Positions 26,906 to 41,673 of a DNA stretch of 64,000 bases are shown piece after piece. This DNA is from Candidatus Taenariivivens baikalensis (GTDB taxonomy: Bacteria > Omnitrophota > Omnitrophia > Omnitrophales > Aquincolibacteriaceae). The translations under genes were made by a program, and so were the position numbers. Positions within the stretch are counted from its first letter, which is position 1. Every line of letters begins with the position of its first letter. The notes beneath the pieces were generated by a model, which searched no databases, was not told the DNA's origin, and was given only the letters and a program-made list of their open reading frames with translations. The stretch spans positions 25,834 to 89,833 of the forward strand of contig SICL01000003.1 in the NCBI GenBank assembly GCA_009691445.1, given 5' to 3'.

Positions 26906-28279
26906 TTGATGTCTGCTTTTTCAAAAATCCTAATTGTTGACGACGAAAAAAATACCTGCGAAGGCCTGGCTCAATTTCTGGAAGCCCTCGATTATGATGT
27001 CCTCACGGCTTCAAGCGGAGAGGACGGCTGGAAAATTTATCAGCAGGAAAAACCCGATTTGATTTTGAGCGATATTAAAATGCCGGGAATGGGCGGCATT
27101 GAGCTGCTTGAAAAAATCAAACGCGCGAATCCTCGGGAACTCGTCATCTTGCTGACCGCTTACGGCTCCGTGGAAGACGCGGTTCAGTCCATGAAAAAGG
27201 GCGCCTATTACTATCTCACCAAGCCGGTGAATCTCGAGGAGCTGGAACTGCTCGTCAAAAAAGCCCTCAAAAGCCGCGAACTCGAAGAAGAAAATCAGGA
27301 ACTGAAGACCGCGCTTTTTTCCGAGCGGTTTGAAGAAGGTGAAATTCAGGGGAATTCATCGGTCATCAAAAATCTCCTGAACAAAGTCGATCAGGTAGCC
27401 AAATCAAATGCGACAGTCCTCATTGAAGGAGAAAGCGGTACGGGCAAAGAGCTGATTGCTCACAGGATTCATGAAAAGAGTGGGCGCGCTCATCATTCTT
27501 TTGTCGCCGTTCACTGCGCGGCCTTGACCGAGACACTTCTGGCGAGTGAGCTTTTTGGCCACGAGCGCGGAGCCTTTACCGGTGCTTACGAACGAAAGAT
27601 CGGACGTTTTGAAAAAGCCCATCAAGGAACCCTGTTCCTGGATGAAATCGGAGAGATCTCTCCCGAAACTCAGGTGAAATTACTGCGCGTTCTTCAGGGC
27701 GGGGAATTTGAACGCGTAGGCGGAACCAAAACCATCAAAGTGAATGTTCGTCTGGTTTGTGCGACCAATAAAAATCTTACGGATGAAGTGGCCAAAGGAA
27801 AATTCCGTGAAGATCTCTATTACCGAATCAATGTGATTTATCTGAAAGTGCCGCCGCTCCGGGAGCGCAAGGAAGATATCCCGCTTCTCGCTCATTCCTT
27901 CCTCAAGCATTTTGCACGTCTCAATGTAAAAAAAATCACAACCTTGGATGCCGACGCCCTGGAAGTCCTCAAAAAATATCCCTGGCCCGGAAATATCCGC
28001 GAGCTCAAAAATATCCTGGAGCGGATGGTCGTGCTCAGCACCAAAGATAAAATCACCCTGGATCTTGTCCCCGAGGATATTCGGCGTTCTTCAGTTTCCG
28101 GTTCTCCGGCCTTTGCTCCTGCTTCTGCTCCTGTTCCCGCTTCCATCCCCGAAATGGAAAAAGAACTGATCATCCGCACCCTCGCCGAAGTCAAAGGCAA
28201 CAAATCCATCGCCGCCAAGAAGCTCGGCATTTCGCGTCGGACTCTGTACCGGAAACTCGACGAATATAGGCTGGAGTAA
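26906..28279 (+). CDS. sigma-54-dependent response regulator (NtrC family: REC-AAA-Fis HTH)
   Basis: REC Asp (LILSDIKMPGMGG); GESGTGKE Walker A; GAFTGA sigma54 contact motif; C-terminal HTH ISRRTLYRKL. Confidence 0.9.
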   Translation: MMSAFSKILIVDDEKNTCEGLAQFLEALDYDVLTASSGEDGWKIYQQEKPDLILSDIKMPGMGGIELLEKIKRANPRELVILLTAYGSVEDAVQSMKKGAYYYLTKPVNLEELELLVKKALKSRELEEENQELKTALFSERFEEGEIQGNSSVIKNLLNKVDQVAKSNATVLIEGESGTGKELIAHRIHEKSGRAHHSFVAVHCAALTETLLASELFGHERGAFTGAYERKIGRFEKAHQGTLFLDEIGEISPETQVKLLRVLQGGEFERVGGTKTIKVNVRLVCATNKNLTDEVAKGKFREDLYYRINVIYLKVPPLRERKEDIPLLAHSFLKHFARLNVKKITTLDADALEVLKKYPWPGNIRELKNILERMVVLSTKDKITLDLVPEDIRRSSVSGSPAFAPASAPVPASIPEMEKELIIRTLAEVKGNKSIAAKKLGISRRTLYRKLDEYRLE

Positions 28280-28360
28280 GAGGTTACGTGTTATAATATC
28301 AGACAATATAACTAATAAACACAGCTTGAAATTATTAGTTTAATAGCATATAGTTATAGC

Positions 28361-28825
28361 ATGAAGAAACAAACCCTCGATTTTGAAATGAATGCCCAGT
28401 TCCGTCCCCAAGAGGAATTCCCCGCCTTTTTAAAAGACCGGCCTCCGCTTTCAGAGCAGATCAAGCAAATGCGTGAAGCGCTTGGGATGACTCAGTCTCA
28501 GCTTGCACAACGGGCTGGGATCAGTCAAAGCCGCTTGGCACAAATCGAGGGAAATCCGGACCAAGACCTGCAGGTCTCTACGCTCAAAAAATTGTCCGCC
28601 GCACTTGGATGTCATCTTCTGGAAGCACTTGTTCCCAATCAGGAAATTTCAAAAACGCTGGATGAGAAAGCAGGCCGGGTTGCCGCCAAGCTGATGAGAA
28701 TTTCTTCCGGCAATGCCGCACTTGAACTCCAGCTTCCGCAAAAAGCGTATCTGGATTTTCAATTCAAGCAAATGAAGGAAGAAATTCTTTCCAAATACCG
28801 CAAAGATTTATGGAAAGAACTCTAA
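28361..28825 (+). CDS. XRE-family HTH protein (mobile mystery protein A-like)
   Basis: MTQSQLAQRAGISQSRLAQIEG helix-turn-helix; overlaps and precedes a Fic-domain gene, the arrangement described for the mobile mystery protein A/B pairs. Confidence 0.7.
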   Translation: MKKQTLDFEMNAQFRPQEEFPAFLKDRPPLSEQIKQMREALGMTQSQLAQRAGISQSRLAQIEGNPDQDLQVSTLKKLSAALGCHLLEALVPNQEISKTLDEKAGRVAAKLMRISSGNAALELQLPQKAYLDFQFKQMKEEILSKYRKDLWKEL

Positions 28826-29421
28826 GCGGAACACCGGTTCCGGCCGAAACCCAGCTCAAAGATATTTCAGGCTTGATCCCAAAGCACGTGCGCACCAGGG
28901 AATCTCTGGATCGTGCCGAATTCGAAAATATCACCGCGATTTCGCGGAAATATTTTTTGAGCGTTCCCAGCCGTAAAAAAGCGCCGTTTACCTTCAAATG
29001 GTTCTCGGCACTTCACCGGGAAATGTTCGGAGAGGTTTGGGAGTGGGCCGGTCAGATCCGCACCACGGATGTCGGGATCGGATGCGCTCCGTCCAAAATC
29101 GGTGCTGAATTGCACAAACTGATTTACGATCTTGGTCTGTGGGAAAAAGAAAAGAAAGATGCTTTTGAAATCGCGGTCCGGCTGCATCATCGCCTGGTCT
29201 GGATCCATCCCTTTAACGGGGGCAATGGACGCTGGGCAAGAACCGCGGCCAATATTTATCTGGCGCAGTCCGGCCTTCTACTTTTTGAATGGCCGGAAGA
29301 CCGGATCAAAATTGAAGGTCGGATCCGAAAAGAATATGTCGAGGCTTTACGCAATGCCGACCACGGCGACATTCATCCTCTCCTTCGCTTTCACAAACGG
29401 TATTGGAAGGAGAAGAGGTGA
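28810..29421 (+). CDS. Fic/Doc family protein (mobile mystery protein B-like)
   Basis: Fic motif HPFNGGNGRWAR (HxFx[DE]GNGRxxR). Confidence 0.85.
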   Translation: MERTLSGTPVPAETQLKDISGLIPKHVRTRESLDRAEFENITAISRKYFLSVPSRKKAPFTFKWFSALHREMFGEVWEWAGQIRTTDVGIGCAPSKIGAELHKLIYDLGLWEKEKKDAFEIAVRLHHRLVWIHPFNGGNGRWARTAANIYLAQSGLLLFEWPEDRIKIEGRIRKEYVEALRNADHGDIHPLLRFHKRYWKEKR

Positions 29422-29518
29422 GTTGAATTCCCGGGACACTTAACTTAATTATTTTTTGGAATTCTGAATTTTGTGATGTGTCCTCAGAAAGAGAATTGGA
29501 ATAACCAGAGAGGGAGAA

Positions 29519-30736
29519 TTGCCTGTCATGGAATACGGCGTACTAAGTACTGTGGAAAATAAAAACGCCAGAACTCAACGTGGTACGCAGCGCGCAATAC
29601 TCAGTACTGGTTATAGTTCCTACGCCGAACTTCGTGACAAGGTTCGGAAAACCCTTCTCGAAGGCCAGCGTAAAATTGAACTCGCAAAGGTCCAGACTTA
29701 TTGGGATACCGGCAAACACATTAATGAGCACCTTCGGATTCATGAAGGGCGCACCGAGTACAAAAAGAAAACGCTGATCAGGCTGGGTAAAGATCTTGAT
29801 CTGGACGACAGTGTCCTTCGGCGGTGCGCAGAATTGAAGGAGGGATTCCCGGATTTACCAATTCGTGCCGGCTGGCACAAATCTGGTAATAATAGAATAA
29901 TCTCTATTAAAAAATATCCCTGGGCCTGCTTACACTGGAGTCATTTTCGGGCACTTCTTCCTCTTGAGGACCTGAAAACCCGCTACGAACTTGCCGATCA
30001 AGCCGCAGAAAAAGGCTGGATTGCCGAAGAGCTCGAAGCAAAGGTGAGGAAGATCAATGAAGATATCAGAGAAAAAAATGGCGGCGGGGGAAAACATCCC
30101 GTTCGTCCCTCGGAGCTGCTGACGCCCAAACTCGGTAAAACCGGCATTTATCAAATGATTCAGGACGGGGACTCGCTGACCGTGGATCTTGGGTTCACGT
30201 CTTACTGCAAACTTCCCAAGAATCAGGCAAGCAAATTCAAAGCCGGGGATTACTGCCTTTGGAAAGGCGACGCGCCGCCGAAAAAAATCCAGGGTGCGCC
30301 TTCCGATTTATTTACTTACGAAGCCGAAGTGCTGAAAGTCGTGGACGGGGATACGCTCTGGCTCAAGATCTGGCTCGCGGACGATCTGTGGCTGAAGGAA
30401 AAGGTACGGCTGCGCGGTATCAATTGTCCGGAGATGGATACGAGGGAAGGGAAGGATGCGAAAAAATTCGTGGAGTCCGTCATTGCGAGCAGTGCGAAGC
30501 AATCTCGCATCCTTATTGCTACGACGAAGCCCGACAAATACGATCGCTATCTAACGGATGTGTTTTTGCCAATCAGCATGGAGCAGAGAGCAAGGAGCAT
30601 AGAGAATAAATCTTTGAACTCCATGCCCTCTGCCCTAAGCTCTATGCTTTTTCTAAACAACGAACTCCTCAAGCACGGCTTGGCCGAGAAGAAAACCAAT
30701 TACTCGTTTAGCGATTGGGGAGATTTGGAACGCTGA
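29519..30736 (+). CDS. fusion protein: DUF1016 (YhcG-type) N-terminal domain + staphylococcal-nuclease-like (SNase/thermonuclease) C-terminal domain; carries two in-frame palindromic inserts
   Basis: N-term: LHWSHFRALLPLEDLKTRYELADQAAEKGWIAEELEAKV matches the DUF1016 N-domain consensus (LPWSHYR.LL...D...R.FY...A...GWS.R.LE.QI); C-term: VVDGDTLWL...VRLRGINCPE...GKDAKKFVE...YDRYLTDVF is the SNase fold pattern (GDT...RL.GIDaPE...G.eA......V......DrYGR.la.V). Confidence 0.7.
   Translation: MPVMEYGVLSTVENKNARTQRGTQRAILSTGYSSYAELRDKVRKTLLEGQRKIELAKVQTYWDTGKHINEHLRIHEGRTEYKKKTLIRLGKDLDLDDSVLRRCAELKEGFPDLPIRAGWHKSGNNRIISIKKYPWACLHWSHFRALLPLEDLKTRYELADQAAEKGWIAEELEAKVRKINEDIREKNGGGGKHPVRPSELLTPKLGKTGIYQMIQDGDSLTVDLGFTSYCKLPKNQASKFKAGDYCLWKGDAPPKKIQGAPSDLFTYEAEVLKVVDGDTLWLKIWLADDLWLKEKVRLRGINCPEMDTREGKDAKKFVESVIASSAKQSRILIATTKPDKYDRYLTDVFLPISMEQRARSIENKSLNSMPSALSSMLFLNNELLKHGLAEKKTNYSFSDWGDLER
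30479..30530. repeat. Family-R palindromic repeat in-frame inside the SNase domain
   Basis: gtcattgcgagcagtgcgaagcaatctcgcatccttattgctacgacgaag; encodes VIASSAKQSRILIATT. Confidence 0.75.
30586..30660. repeat. Family-B palindromic insert in-frame near the 3' end of the nuclease gene
   Basis: gagcagagagcaaggagcatagag ... ccatgccctctgccctaagctctatgc; same family as the three copies in the 4010-aa gene. Confidence 0.7.
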
Positions 30737-30737
30737 T

Positions 30738-31325
30738 TTATTCCAGATCCCGATGAAACCCGATTCGCCGTTTTGGTTTCTCCGGTTCCGGTGCCGGCTC
30801 AAGCAGCTGCTTCAAGGCATCAAAGACGACCTTAAACTGCAGGTCATACTTTTTCTCCATTGCCTCAATTTTCCGGCGCAGTTCTTTGTGCGCATCCAGC
30901 ATCTGTCTGATTTTCGTAAAGGTTCGCATGATTTGAATATTCACCTGAATCGCCCGTTTGCTTTTCAAAACACTTGAGAGCATGGAAACACCCTGTTCAG
31001 TAAAAGCGTAGGGAACTGCCCGTCTCAATCCTCCCCAACTTGAAGTCACAAATTGTGACTTCAAGTTGGTAAACTCTTCCGCGCTCAATTGAAACATGAA
31101 GTCCGAGGGAAACCTGTCCTGATTTCTTTTGACGGCTTGGATCAGTGCTTTTGGTTTCACCTGATAAAGATCAGCTAAATCGAGACTAAGCATGACCTTC
31201 TGATTCCGAAGAAAATAAATCTTTTGTCGAAGGGTTTCGTGGGAAATAGAAGCAGTATTTGAATCTCGAGTTTTCATTTTGGGCCTCCTGGAGTTGTTGG
31301 ATGTTTTACTTACTCCGAAAGCCAA
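30738..31325 (-). CDS. ORF6N-domain protein (KilA-N/antirepressor-like), copy 1
   Basis: KVMLSLDLADLYQV...QAVKRNQDRFPSDFMFQL...VTSSWGGLRRAVPYAFTEQGVSMLSSVLKSKRAIQVNIQIMR matches the ORF6N consensus. Confidence 0.8.
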   Translation of the reverse strand: MAFGVSKTSNNSRRPKMKTRDSNTASISHETLRQKIYFLRNQKVMLSLDLADLYQVKPKALIQAVKRNQDRFPSDFMFQLSAEEFTNLKSQFVTSSWGGLRRAVPYAFTEQGVSMLSSVLKSKRAIQVNIQIMRTFTKIRQMLDAHKELRRKIEAMEKKYDLQFKVVFDALKQLLEPAPEPEKPKRRIGFHRDLE

Positions 31326-31454
31326 AAAAAAAGAAGAACCCGCGGAGGAGTTTCACTTTCCGCAAGTTCTTCGCCCGTTGAAATGATACCAAAAAAGAGG
31401 ACTGAATCAACCGTTTTGTTCATTTCCCGGTACATTTTTTTGACGCTAGCAAAT

Positions 31455-31610
31455 GCTAGAAAAAGATCGTTGATCAGAAAAAAGGGTGAGCGGGTGAATG
31501 AGTATGCGAGTGCGCGCGTTGAAATTAACCCGTTAACCCTTGCGCTTTTTCATTTAATTTCACCTTCGGCGGGTTTACTCTGTCCCTCGGGCGGGGACTG
31601 TCCCCTTGAA
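31455..31610. repeat. Family-H hairpin repeat, copy 1 (long form)
   Basis: ...gatcgttgatcag...gcgcgcgttgaaattaacccgttaacccttgcgctttttcatttaatttcaccttcggcgggtttactctgtccctcgggcggggactgtcccctt; about 90% identical to the copy at 32460-32600; the core hairpin ctgtccc-tcgggc-ggggacag recurs at 40520-40595. Confidence 0.8.
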
Positions 31611-31945
31611 GTTCTCAAGCACGGCTTGGCCGAGAAGAAAACCAATTACTCGTTTAGCGATTGGGGAGATTTGGAACGCTGATTTATTCCAGATCCCGAT
31701 GAAACCCGATTCTCCGTTTTGGTTTCTCCGGTTGCGGTGCCGGCTCAAGCAGCTGCTTCAAGGCATCAAAGACGACCTTAAACTGCAGGTCATACTTTTT
31801 CTCCATTGCCTCAATTTTCTGGCGCAGATCTTTGTGCGCATCCAGCATCTGTCTGATTTTCGAAAAGGTCCTCATGATTTGTATATTGACTTGAATGGCG
31901 CGTTTGCTTTTCAAAACACTTGAAAGCATAGAGACGCCTTGTTCC
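31606..31945. repeat. segmental duplication: copy of 30672-31010 (3' tail of the nuclease gene plus 3' half of the ORF6N gene)
   Basis: about 340 bp at >90% identity read directly from both places (ctcaagcacggcttggccgagaagaaaaccaattactcgtttagcgattggggagatttggaacgctgatttattccagatcccgatgaaacccgattc...). Confidence 0.85.
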
Positions 31946-32235
31946 GTGAATATATAAGGCAAACTTCGCCGTCCTCCACGTCCCATGTTTGAAGTCACAT
32001 TTTGTGATATCAAAGCTCTAACCTCCTGCAAAGTAAGGCGTTGCATAAAATCATCAGGAAATCTTTCCCGGTTTCTTTTGACCGCTTGAATCAAGGCCCC
32101 GGTTGTGACTCCATAAAGTAAGGCCAAATCACTATCGAGCATGACCTTTCTGCCGCGAATGAAATAGATCTTTTGCTCGATCGCTTCTGAATCGTGGATA
32201 GCAGGTGTCTTGGTTGGTTTGATGGTTTTTGACAT
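31684..32235 (-). CDS. ORF6N-domain protein, copy 2 (paralog of 30738..31325; C-terminal 60 aa nearly identical, N-terminus diverged)
   Basis: KVMLDSDLALLYGV...QAVKRNRERFPDDFM...VTSNMGRGGRRSLPYIFTEQGVSMLSSVLKSKRAIQVNIQIMR. Confidence 0.8.
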   Translation of the reverse strand: MSKTIKPTKTPAIHDSEAIEQKIYFIRGRKVMLDSDLALLYGVTTGALIQAVKRNRERFPDDFMQRLTLQEVRALISQNVTSNMGRGGRRSLPYIFTEQGVSMLSSVLKSKRAIQVNIQIMRTFSKIRQMLDAHKDLRQKIEAMEKKYDLQFKVVFDALKQLLEPAPQPEKPKRRIGFHRDLE

Positions 32236-32459
32236 AAAAAAACCCTCCTAAGGTTGTGATGTTAGGAAGGTCTGAGCTCGCCATCAAAAAAAAGGGACGA
32301 GCATCAAACCTTCGTAGATGCTCGTCCGCCAAGCCTTATATCGTGGGAGTAGTCTAATAAATTCACGAATCAAATCAAGAAGAAAATCAGAGATTTCTCG
32401 GAACTTTTGGAGTAAGAACCGCTTGTTATAAGTTGCTACTTGTGGTGAGCCTGTCGAAC

Positions 32460-32600
32460 CAGCAAAAGATCGTTGATCAGGAAACCCGAGTTCACGAGTG
32501 CGCGGGTTGAAATTAACCCGTTAACCCTTGCGCTTTTTCATTTAATTTCCACCCTCAGCGGGTTTACTCTGTCCCTCGAGCGGGGACTGTCCCCTTGAAG
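32460..32600. repeat. Family-H hairpin repeat, copy 2 (long form), 3' of the subtilase giant gene
   Basis: agatcgttgatcaggaaacccgagttcacgagtgcgcgggttgaaattaacccgttaacccttgcgctttttcatttaatttccaccctcagcgggtttactctgtccctcgagcggggactgtcccctt. Confidence 0.8.
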
Positions 32601-32901
32601 TTTTCGATGACAATGATAGCCTCGACGATTTCAGAAGTGTGTTCCGAAGGAACCTCGCCGATGGCGTTAGAAATTTACCGCCAGACCAGGGCTTTTGGAA
32701 ATACCTTTGTTTTTTTAGTGGGCGGCATGGCCACGGATTACACGGTGATCGGGCTTCTTTGGAAAAACCTCAGAAAAAAAACAGGGCTTTGGATGCTTGT
32801 AATCAACATTCCCCAGATTATTTTCTTCGGCTGGATCTTTAATCGATTTTGATTTTTGGTAATCGGAAAGCGTTGCCCAAAATAGACTCTGAAGTTTCAC
32901 C

Positions 32902-35900
32902 CTATCCTTGAAGTAATCTTGCGAGCTCAGCACGTTTCGCTACAATTTGAGCGCGAAGTTCTTCCATTTCCCACTTGGGCCACAGTGAATATTCCGGCGC
33001 CATTTTGATTATATTTTGGGCTTGCAGGTCAAATTTACTTAAGCTTAAAAAAGATCCAGAAAATAGCGGCTGTTTGTATTCAATATCAAATATCTTCCGG
33101 TTCACCTCGTTTCTGACAGCTCCTACGGTGTTCATAATCGAAGAATAGGATTTAGGCGAGTTTCCGGTCGTTCCATCAAAACTACTTTCAATTTGCATGA
33201 TTCTTTCATGAAGTAATTTGAGATTTTCGAGATTGTTGTCTATGTGAATTTCTGTGTAGGTTTGATCGCTGACAATCACATAAGGATCCCGGTCTTTTTC
33301 TAGAACCAGAGAAATGGATTTGTAATATCCTCCGCGCCTGTCGGGCGAGCGTACGAATGAGGTCGAATTGATTTGTGTAGGGGCCACTGCCAGAGTGGTT
33401 TCGCCTATGGTGATCGATTGGCCAATGTCAGCGGCAGGTATCTCCCATGTCTGATTTCTCCCGGTTTCTTTTCCGGTTTCAGGATTGTAGGTGATGGCAA
33501 GGGCCATTACGACGGTTTGGGTATAGGTATTATAGTTTTCATCCAGCCTTTTTTGGAGATGCCCTTGCACGAAAGTATCCGTGACAATCCTGGAAGGTTT
33601 AGCTGTGGTGGAGTAGTAGCTAATTTGCTGCTGCGTTTCTAAGAGATTTTGGGAATCAAATATATCAATCGTTTTTTCGAGCAGATTCCCTCGTCCGTCG
33701 AATTGACTCACAGTGGTTTGATGAGGTTCTTGTGTTCCGGAGTCAAAAATAGTTAAAGTCTCCTGAGTGGGGAAACCTTGCGGATTAATTATCTTCACAG
33801 TTTTGCTTAGGATTTGATTTTGACTATTGGTCACGGTCTTTGTTTCGTTGACATTGTCATCAAAATCTTTCACGGAGATTGTTTCTACCGAATTTCCATC
33901 TTTATCAGTCGTAAAAGTTTTGACCGGAGGATAGATAATATCTATTTTTAACTCGAGGAGATGCTGCTCTCCTAATTGAACTTTTCCGGTTGCAGGATCC
34001 GTGATGATCGATTGGTAAGCCATCTGGACTTTATCTCCCCAAAGAAAGGCATAATTGATAACCACCGGCCGGCCTTGAGCGTCTTGATTAAACTCTTCCA
34101 TTCGGTTTCCCTGTGGATCCACAAGCATTACAGCTTGGGCTGTTTTATGAAAGATTCTAAAAGTGTTTCTGATCTGATCATTTGCGGAAGGGATCTTGGC
34201 GTAGTCTTCAACCAATAAAAGAAGAAACCTTCCATCGGGAGTGGATTGGGGAATGAATTTCGGATTCGTATAGTCCATCCGATACCAATAATGTTGTGCT
34301 AGGTTCTTATAACCCGCTATATAGAGAGCAAATCCAACTTGCAACCCATTCTCAAGGTTGTTGCTTTTGACATCGTAGCGCCAAAAACCTCTGGGCCAAA
34401 GAGAGATGGTATTATTCAGCGTAGTGGCTCGTTCATAAAAAGAAATTTTATCGATCACAAGACCACTTGGTTTCGATAAATCGATTTCAAAAAAGAAGGG
34501 ATTTTTTTCCCGGTCCAAACCCCCGGCAAGGGCTTTTGTTTTGGAACTCAAAATATCCACTCCGGTCATATCCATTCCGGTCCAAAGGGAATTTTTGAGG
34601 GTAAGTGAGCCTGGAGATTCTTCAAAAGTGATAATGCTTCGTCCGCTGGCAGCAACCAGCAGAGGAGTTCCCTGAGAATTTTGAGTCAGGGTAAGGTCTT
34701 TGATAGGACCGAGATTTGAAAAATGGCCTGAGGCCAAGCGGTGTGGTTCTTTGGGGTTGTTTAAATCCCAGCTTTCAAGGGTCACTCCGCCATCCGGTGT
34801 AATTTGAGTGACATAAACCTTGGTGCCAAAGGCATACATTCCGTTGACACTCTCAGATGGAATAGTGCCTTCCACTTGGCCGGTATTGGTATTCACAATT
34901 TGAATACCCGAATTACCGCCAAGGTGAACCAAGACACGGGCTGAGTCAAGAACTTCGACAAGGCCCGCGGAACGCTCCACTGGATTTTGGGAAGATGGAC
35001 GTGTGAGCTTTATCGTTTTTTCTAATTTCAGATTTTTAGGCTGCGTGACATCATAAATTTCTAATATCATTTCCTGCTCCAAAGCAGGAGATTGAGGAAG
35101 GGATTTAAGGATATAGGCTTTATTCCCGGCAAGGGCAAAATCTTTAATCTCTGCAGGAGAAGAGTTTGATTCCGGACGGATGGTGCCAATTTCAGGCCCT
35201 AAAGTACCGTTAAGATGGTCGGCATAGGCACGGTCGCTCAGATCAAAAATATGGATAGTTGAATCCGGGCTCATGACATAGAGATAATTACCTTGAAGTT
35301 TATAAGACCGGACGTCTCCTATATAGACCCATTTTTCTTTAACGTCATATGAATTCAACATACAGACTTGTTGATTGGCACAGTCCGAGTAATTCGACTC
35401 GGACACGCCAGTCGCGGAATGACCACTGTGGGAATCTGACATTACAGAAAAGATGGGGGTGGGCATAAATTCAGTGCCTTGGCCCAGGAAAGAATTTTTT
35501 TCGGGTTTACTCCAGGGAGCCGTTGGTACAGGATCAGTATTCGTAGGAGGAGGAGTATTATTTTTTTGTTCAAGGGCGGATTTTAAAGCACCTTCGGCAT
35601 TGAGAATTCCCTTTCCAAGATATTGATCGGCCGTATAGGGTTGTGCGCTTTTTGTCAGGTCACTTAAAATTTGGTCCGGAGTGTACTGGGGATTTAAGGT
35701 TTTGATCAAAGCGGCAACGCCCGCAACCTGCGGTGCTGCTGCGGAAGTTCCATTGTAGGAATCATATTTTTCTCCGGGCATCGTGGAATGAATTCCAATG
35801 GCAGGGGCTGCAATATCAACATCATTGCCATAATTGGATCCTGCTGTATCACCCGGTTTCGTTCCAAACATGGCCCGGTGGTCTGCTTTGTCAGTTCCTC

Positions 35901-41224: not shown

Positions 41225-41673
41225 TTGATTTTTCCTGACCAAGATCTTTCACTAGCATTAGCTAGCCCTTTATTTTTTCTGAAAAAGCTCTGGAAGTTTC
41301 GGCCTGTCTTTTCTATAATTCTCCTCACTAGACGTGGCGGACGCGTGAAACCGGAAGGTTTGACGCTCCGCCTTTTTTGTGTGGCCCGCCAAGCTTTCCT
41401 AAACGAACAATTTTATGTGCTGATCGATCTCAAAGCGGGAAGGTTGACGCATCAGGATTTTTTTAGATGCAAATGTATGTTAATTATTACGACCGTGAAA
41501 TCCTGGAAAAGGATGATGATCCGACGGTGGGTTTGATCTTGTACGAAGACAAGAAAGAGGCGGTGGTTCGTTACACGCTCTCCAAAGCTAACCGACAAAT
41601 TTTCGCGTCCCGCTATAAGCTCTATTTACCAACTGAAGAAACGCTCAAGCATCAGATAAGGGCTAGAGCTTAA
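41225..41673 (+). pseudogene. degraded DUF1016 (YhcG-type PDDEXK nuclease) C-terminal fragment, frameshifted
   Basis: two ORFs in different frames (41225..41536 frame 2; 41467..41673 frame 1) together spell ...FCVARQAFLNEQFYVLIDLKAGRL...//...YVNYYDREILEKDDDPTVGLILYEDKKEAVVRYTLSKANRQIFASRYKLYLPTEETLK, matching the DUF1016 C-terminal consensus (F.ArQ....d..FyiDLLfY.R.L..LVaiELK.g.F....GQm.fYl...D......enPtIGliLC..Kn..vveYaL......IgVa.Y.L...LP.el); the frame switch sits at a T7 homopolymer (gattttttt) about 41455; the N-terminal half is missing. Confidence 0.65.

Follow-up and report, generated by a model that had tools for sequence, protein, structure and literature searches.

Genes and features at the locus

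The open reading frame at positions 29519–30736 (+ strand) of the window, the 64,000-nt stretch of DNA analysed here, encodes a predicted three-domain nuclease and is intact, running without interruption across 405 codons when counted from the TTG at 29519. Its product is matched at 100% by a deposited protein of 402 amino acids (P0001, 'DUF1016 family protein [Candidatus Omnitrophica bacterium]'), which starts at the ATG at 29528. This ATG is better spaced from an upstream GGGAG and is the likelier start.

Upstream and on the same strand lie an HTH_3 gene (28361–28825) and a Fic gene (28810–29421), which overlap by 16 nt; this arrangement does not imply joint action with the nuclease. Downstream, two ORF6N genes on the minus strand (30738–31325, Pfam 1e-32; 31684–32235, Pfam 5e-31), labelled 'anti-repressor' in PHROG, are convergent with the nuclease gene. 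Pfam thus agrees with the initial annotation, which had placed the gene between an HTH/Fic pair and ORF6N genes. Its description of the neighbourhood as typical of defence or mobile-element cargo is likewise in line with PADLOC matches to candidate families, PDC-S04 for Fic (7e-23) and PDC-S05 for both ORF6N genes (8e-59 and 5e-55). Toxin-antitoxin-like genes are also found within the window. No Rfam family is matched with E ≤ 1 at 28000–33000.

A tandemly duplicated unit of about 950 nt, detected as a direct repeat of 95% identity between 30662–30961 and 31608–31907, takes in the 3' end of the gene, namely its final 25 codons (24 residues and the stop; 30662–30736). This leaves an orphan second copy of the gene tail at 31608–31682, and apart from these 24 codons (31608–31679, 96% identity) a tblastn search with the query revealed no further copy of the gene in the window. 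In P0002, the closest relative, the C-terminal sequence is ...FLNNLLLERGLARLKTDYSFSDWNDLKV, in agreement with the query tail, and by this comparison the C-terminus of the gene is native.

Overall architecture of the predicted protein

The AF2 model of the protein (mean pLDDT 81) displays three folded domains. The first is a helical domain (residues 35–189; 29621–30085, + strand), which contains a DUF1016_N match (PF17761) at residues 39–177 that scores 38.5 bits (cut-off 32.8; E 1.5e-9), spanning profile positions 3–131 of 137. In addition, this domain matches 16 PADLOC models of the candidate family PDC-S02 (E down to 2e-14), which align over their first ~160 positions only, that is, via their N-terminal halves; both results uphold the DUF1016 assignment made initially. 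The predicted fold resembles the helix-turn-helix DNA-binding domains of ParB, Spo0J and KorB. In a PDB sequence search with the family profile, the best 60 matches are all SNase entries, with no solved DUF1016 N-domain among them. An insertion at about residues 116–137 (29864–29929, + strand), predicted with low confidence, is specific to a subfamily: in alignment A1 it is confined to the query and to P0003, P0006 and P0016, its column occupancy ranges from 0.14 to 0.33 among 312 relatives, and the pLDDT stays below 50 for residues 116–131.

The helical domain is followed by a small β-barrel (residues 200–262; 30116–30304, + strand) with the family-conserved signature LLxPKRGxxG...VDLGF..Y. 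The initial annotation had overlooked this domain, and one relative, P0003, naturally lacks it. A 'DGD...VDLGF'-like pattern is common to this barrel and the N-terminal strands of the SNase domain. Structure comparison matches the barrel to OB/CSD-like barrels with Z-scores of at most 4.7, and the model may be described, weakly, as OB/cold-shock/S1-like. Derivation as a degenerate copy of the N-terminal SNase strands was considered and rejected (hhalign probability 0.3%, E 0.2).

The C-terminal part (residues 263–400; 30305–30718, + strand) corresponds to an SNase (thermonuclease) domain. Pfam SNase (PF00565) is matched at residues 295–395 over profile positions 1–80 of 107, scoring 28 bits (cut-off 21; E 3e-6); positions 81–107 are unmatched, and the helix that ends the S. 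aureus enzyme is missing from the core. The motifs quoted in support of this domain by the initial annotation, VVDGDT (residues 274–279) and VRLRGINCPE (296–305), are present, and the usual PDDEXK domain of DUF1016 proteins is missing as it had stated, since YhcG_C (PF06250) gives no Pfam match at E ≤ 1 in the protein. The SNase domain is the best-conserved part of the protein, with a column entropy of 1.63 bits versus 2.11 bits in the N-domain and 2.22 bits in the middle domain. A hydrophobic N-terminal stretch of the signal-peptide type is absent from both the query and the family consensus, which suggests a cytoplasmic location.

Two in-frame inserts, described earlier as repeats within the SNase domain, did not prove to be repeats. 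The first, LWLKIWLADDLWLKEKV, is a conserved family hairpin (consensus LWvKIYLxPxxWLKEKL in alignment A1) and not an insert. The second, a low-complexity insertion of 27 residues (351–377; 30569–30649, + strand), is part of a loop whose length varies between 7 and 40 residues in 112 relatives, with column occupancies of 0.01 to 0.6. In-frame tandem repeats were rejected for this domain, because the sole match of Tandem Repeats Finder is an out-of-frame 14-nt unit repeated 2.1 times at 30575–30604.

Distribution and genomic context of the family

Of the 120 best homologues, 114 carry PF17761 together with PF00565. At 50% identity, at least 163 clusters match both halves of the query at E ≤ 1e-30, at least 442 loci were confirmed in species-representative genomes, and homologues as distant as about 32% identity have the three-domain build over their full length. 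The best 80 loci are distributed over Verrucomicrobiota (~47), Omnitrophota (17) and Planctomycetales (9), plus Latescibacterota and Elusimicrobiota. Judged by these comparisons, DUF1016_N combined with SNase is how the proteins of a large uncharacterised family, present in Verrucomicrobia, Omnitrophica and Planctomycetes, are normally built. Since the family is populous and spans several phyla, the fusion long predates this genome; on this evidence it goes back to the ancestor of the family and is not a product of this genome. The proposal of a domain swap in this genome is thereby contradicted, the same build being found in hundreds of proteins from several phyla. In a literature search for a link between DUF1016 and SNase or thermonuclease, 'DUF1016' occurs in none of the 10 papers listed of 322 matches, and PF17761 is mentioned in no paper. 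Several genomes hold three to five divergent paralogues with 46–65% identity; L028, L038, L040 and L064 are an example from one genome.

The gene context differs between loci, and no syntenic position is conserved. All-against-all clustering of the flanking ORFs yielded no family present in more than 7 of 80 loci, and a search for closely linked ORFs on the same strand gave one weak pair among 53 ORFs; a conserved partner, immunity or antitoxin gene was rejected on these grounds. The 147 immediate neighbours at the 80 loci include four HsdS, four ResIII/DEAD, three type IIG restriction-modification (RM), one RhuM and two DUF4143/PDC-S01 proteins. In three loci (L010, L037 and L067) hsdS is located directly upstream on the same strand, and in a fourth (L004) the homologue adjoins genes for a type IIG RM protein and for Mrr. 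Many homologues, on the other hand, lie amid ordinary housekeeping genes with nothing defence-like close by. In PADLOC, no validated defence protein or system is matched, only candidate PDC models, via the N-domain alone.

Taken together, we lean towards the reading that the protein is a solitary, DNA-directed cytoplasmic nuclease, plausibly conflict-related, with a fusion ancestral to the family. The most credible alternative, although on balance unlikely, is a housekeeping nuclease of PVC-group bacteria, acting in DNA repair, recombination or nucleic-acid turnover without any tie to defence or mobile elements. It would account for the many loci flanked by metabolic or informational genes only (for instance a release factor and epimerases; UvrC, CinA and UDG; fatty-acid and biotin genes) and for the lack of a conserved partner, and it is consistent with a cold-seep study in which one PDC-S02 representative conferred no protection against T4, T5 and T7 (preprint 10.1101/2024.09.26.614923). 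However, several strongly differing copies per genome would be unusual for a housekeeping enzyme, no syntenic position is conserved, and neither the recurrent placement beside hsdS or further RM and candidate-defence genes nor the context of Fic, ORF6N and toxin-antitoxin-like genes in the window fits such a role.

Active site of the SNase domain

Profile-to-PDB alignment places the active-site residues of S. aureus nuclease on three motifs. The first, DGDT (D276, G277, D278, T279; 30344–30355, + strand), is invariant in alignment A1, and D276 and D278 align to Asp19 and Asp21, the latter being a Ca2+ ligand. The second, RLRGINCPE (30407–30433, + strand), provides the equivalents of Arg35 (R297), Asp40 (N302), Thr41 (C303) and Glu43 (E305). 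The third, K340-Y341-D342-R343-Y344-L345 (30536–30553, + strand), is aligned to KYGRGL of thermonuclease, with K340 and Y341 corresponding to Lys84 and Tyr85 and R343 to the catalytic Arg87. Besides DGDT, residues R297, P304-E305, K340, R343, Y344 and L345 are invariant in A1. Of the catalytic and metal-binding set, D278, R297, E305 and R343 are kept, and the equivalents of Asp40 and Thr41 are Asn and Cys.

The asparagine (codon AAT at 30422–30424) replaces a Ca2+ ligand. Among the closest homologues it is found once in 112, which would have made it a unique and possibly inactivating change; this notion was rejected once the 120 closest homologues had been widened with 50%-identity representatives and genome loci to a set of 330 sequences, 301 of which have Asp at position 302, P0002 and P0084 for instance, and 24 (~7%) Asn. 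Asn302 is therefore no longer counted as evidence of decay. Asparagine is able to ligate Ca2+ via its carbonyl oxygen. Thr41 of the S. aureus enzyme does so via its backbone carbonyl, so that the side chain at this position, Cys in the query and Cys or Ala in the family, matters less. Free Ca2+ is low in the cytoplasm. A literature search on the D40N exchange in SNase returned nothing useful. In combination with the missing last helix, Asn302 could reduce or alter the activity.

A catalytically dead DNA- or RNA-binding protein, for instance a regulator using the SNase fold as an OB-type binding module in the manner of eukaryotic Tudor-SN-like domains, would explain both this substitution and the truncated core (profile positions 1–80 of 107). 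We regard it as improbable: the equivalents of Asp21, Arg35, Glu43, Lys84, Tyr85 and Arg87 are present and invariant or nearly so in the family, no other part of the protein is as well conserved as this domain, and Asn302 recurs in relatives that are otherwise intact and could, by general chemistry, still hold the metal.

Neighbouring genes and the downstream yhcG remnant

In a further reading, the nuclease would form a toxin or addiction module with the upstream HTH-Fic pair, or with the downstream ORF6N genes as regulator or antidote. The nuclease gene starts 97 nt after the pair on the same strand, the sole strong promoter-like site of the scan (28326–28354, 10 of 12 positions) lies upstream of the HTH gene, and all three gene types match single-gene candidates of PADLOC. 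This arrangement has only a small probability of reflecting a module, since RhuM/ORF6N-type proteins occur once among the 147 immediate neighbours, Fic is not a frequent family and lies 6.5 kb away in L008/L009, and the promoter and terminator scan performed no better than on shuffled sequence. Fic, HTH and ORF6N do not recur beside the homologues elsewhere in the family, which speaks against an obligate system.

About 11 kb downstream, a remnant of a canonical yhcG gene (DUF1016 with PDDEXK) was recognised by its YhcG_C match and a three-frame reading (41408–41673, + strand). The ORF at 41467–41673 matches YhcG_C with 58.8 bits, and repair of one frameshift at a T-run near 41455–41466 raises the match to 80.4 bits over profile positions 71–155 of 157, so that some 85 residues at the end of the PDDEXK domain survive. 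A decayed DUF1016 C-terminal fragment does therefore exist where the initial annotation had located one, though it extends over about 41408–41673 and not over 41225–41673. By its sequence it is the truncated, frameshifted 3' end of a separate, ordinary yhcG-type gene. The further suggestion that it is the displaced original C-terminus of the nuclease gene, and that a recent local rearrangement replaced the PDDEXK domain of a yhcG gene (fragment at 41.2–41.7 kb) by SNase, can draw on this remnant and on the duplicated 3' end of the nuclease gene but is very improbable in view of the family-wide architecture, with the same three-domain build in hundreds of homologues from several phyla down to ~32% identity, of the native C-terminus, to which the P0002 tail agrees, and of a remnant that is frameshifted, confined to positions 71–155 and not joined to the nuclease gene at any point. 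For the window this amounts to a correction: no local domain swap, and an unrelated pseudogene downstream.

Comparison with known systems

The YhcG/DUF1016 proteins (COG4804; PF17761 and PF06250; PDC-S02) share the helical DUF1016_N domain with the query family. Both families are solitary genes without a conserved partner, occur as several paralogues per genome and are occasionally found beside type I RM genes; published reports place canonical DUF1016 genes within type I RM loci as well as on mobile elements (PMC9881135, PMC4316617, PMC1189080). In contrast, the effector of YhcG is the PDDEXK domain YhcG_C with the motif E-D-E(I/L/V)K (PMC1189080), whereas the query family carries an SNase fold and no PF06250. 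It further differs by the additional OB-like barrel between the N- and C-terminal domains and by its occurrence mostly in PVC-group phyla among the best 80 genome loci.

With S. aureus thermonuclease (micrococcal nuclease) the query shares the active-site layout DGDT, R...(D/N)xPE and KY.R. It differs in the fusion of the SNase domain behind two additional domains, in the absence of the last helix, in Cys/Ala at the Thr41 and Asn at the Asp40 equivalent, and in its probably cytoplasmic location, as suggested by the lack of a signal-peptide-like N-terminus. To our knowledge, characterised thermonucleases are secreted or surface-attached. Enzymes of the SNase family (PF00565) hydrolyse DNA and RNA in the presence of Ca2+, yielding 3'-phosphomononucleotides.

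The likeness of the N-domain to the helix-turn-helix of ParB/Spo0J/KorB stems from the predicted structure only; the corresponding Pfam match reaches 18.9 bits, below the cut-off of 22.6. Neither an N-terminal CTPase/Srx domain nor a C-terminal dimerisation domain of ParB was detected in the query, and no partition genes are located close to the nuclease gene. In eukaryotic Tudor-SN (SND1) and extended-Tudor proteins a Tudor barrel is inserted into a mostly non-catalytic SN-like fold, whereas the barrel of the query is closer to OB/CSD folds and is followed by an SNase domain whose active site is largely kept. The resemblance is treated as a convergent arrangement, and no homology is claimed.

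Proposed role

As a solitary nuclease, the protein would use the N-domain, perhaps together with the barrel, to bind nucleic acid and to position or gate the SNase domain, which would then hydrolyse phosphodiester bonds with the help of a divalent metal; the fold itself has no intrinsic specificity. Because no conserved partner gene was found, the protein presumably acts alone. It may represent a counterpart of the YhcG/DUF1016 proteins (PDC-S02) with SNase instead of PDDEXK as effector and, like YhcG, belong to the variable, conflict-related part of the genome, either as a defence nuclease or as a nuclease travelling with restriction-modification loci.

DUF1016 genes are among the commonest passengers of restriction-modification loci and a listed phage-defence candidate (PDC-S02). 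The family-wide tie of DUF1016_N to a second, unrelated nuclease fold provides independent evidence that the N-domain serves targeting or sensing and that the C-domain is an exchangeable effector. SNase chemistry is very well understood and could offer a convenient experimental handle on activity, metal dependence and targeting, and among the thermonucleases characterised so far an SNase directed to DNA in the cytoplasm would stand out. Tentatively, DUF1016_N may serve as a portable, ParB-like module for DNA targeting or sensing, coupled to the unrelated PDDEXK fold in YhcG and to SNase here, and the family a possible undescribed class of solitary restriction or abortive-infection nucleases in PVC-group bacteria. 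If so, the SNase version would have expanded in Opitutaceae and their relatives, with several divergent paralogues in one genome, and would recur beside hsdS; these proteins would be cytoplasmic, sequence- or structure-directed nucleases of the SNase fold, and the diversity of the paralogues would reflect different targets.

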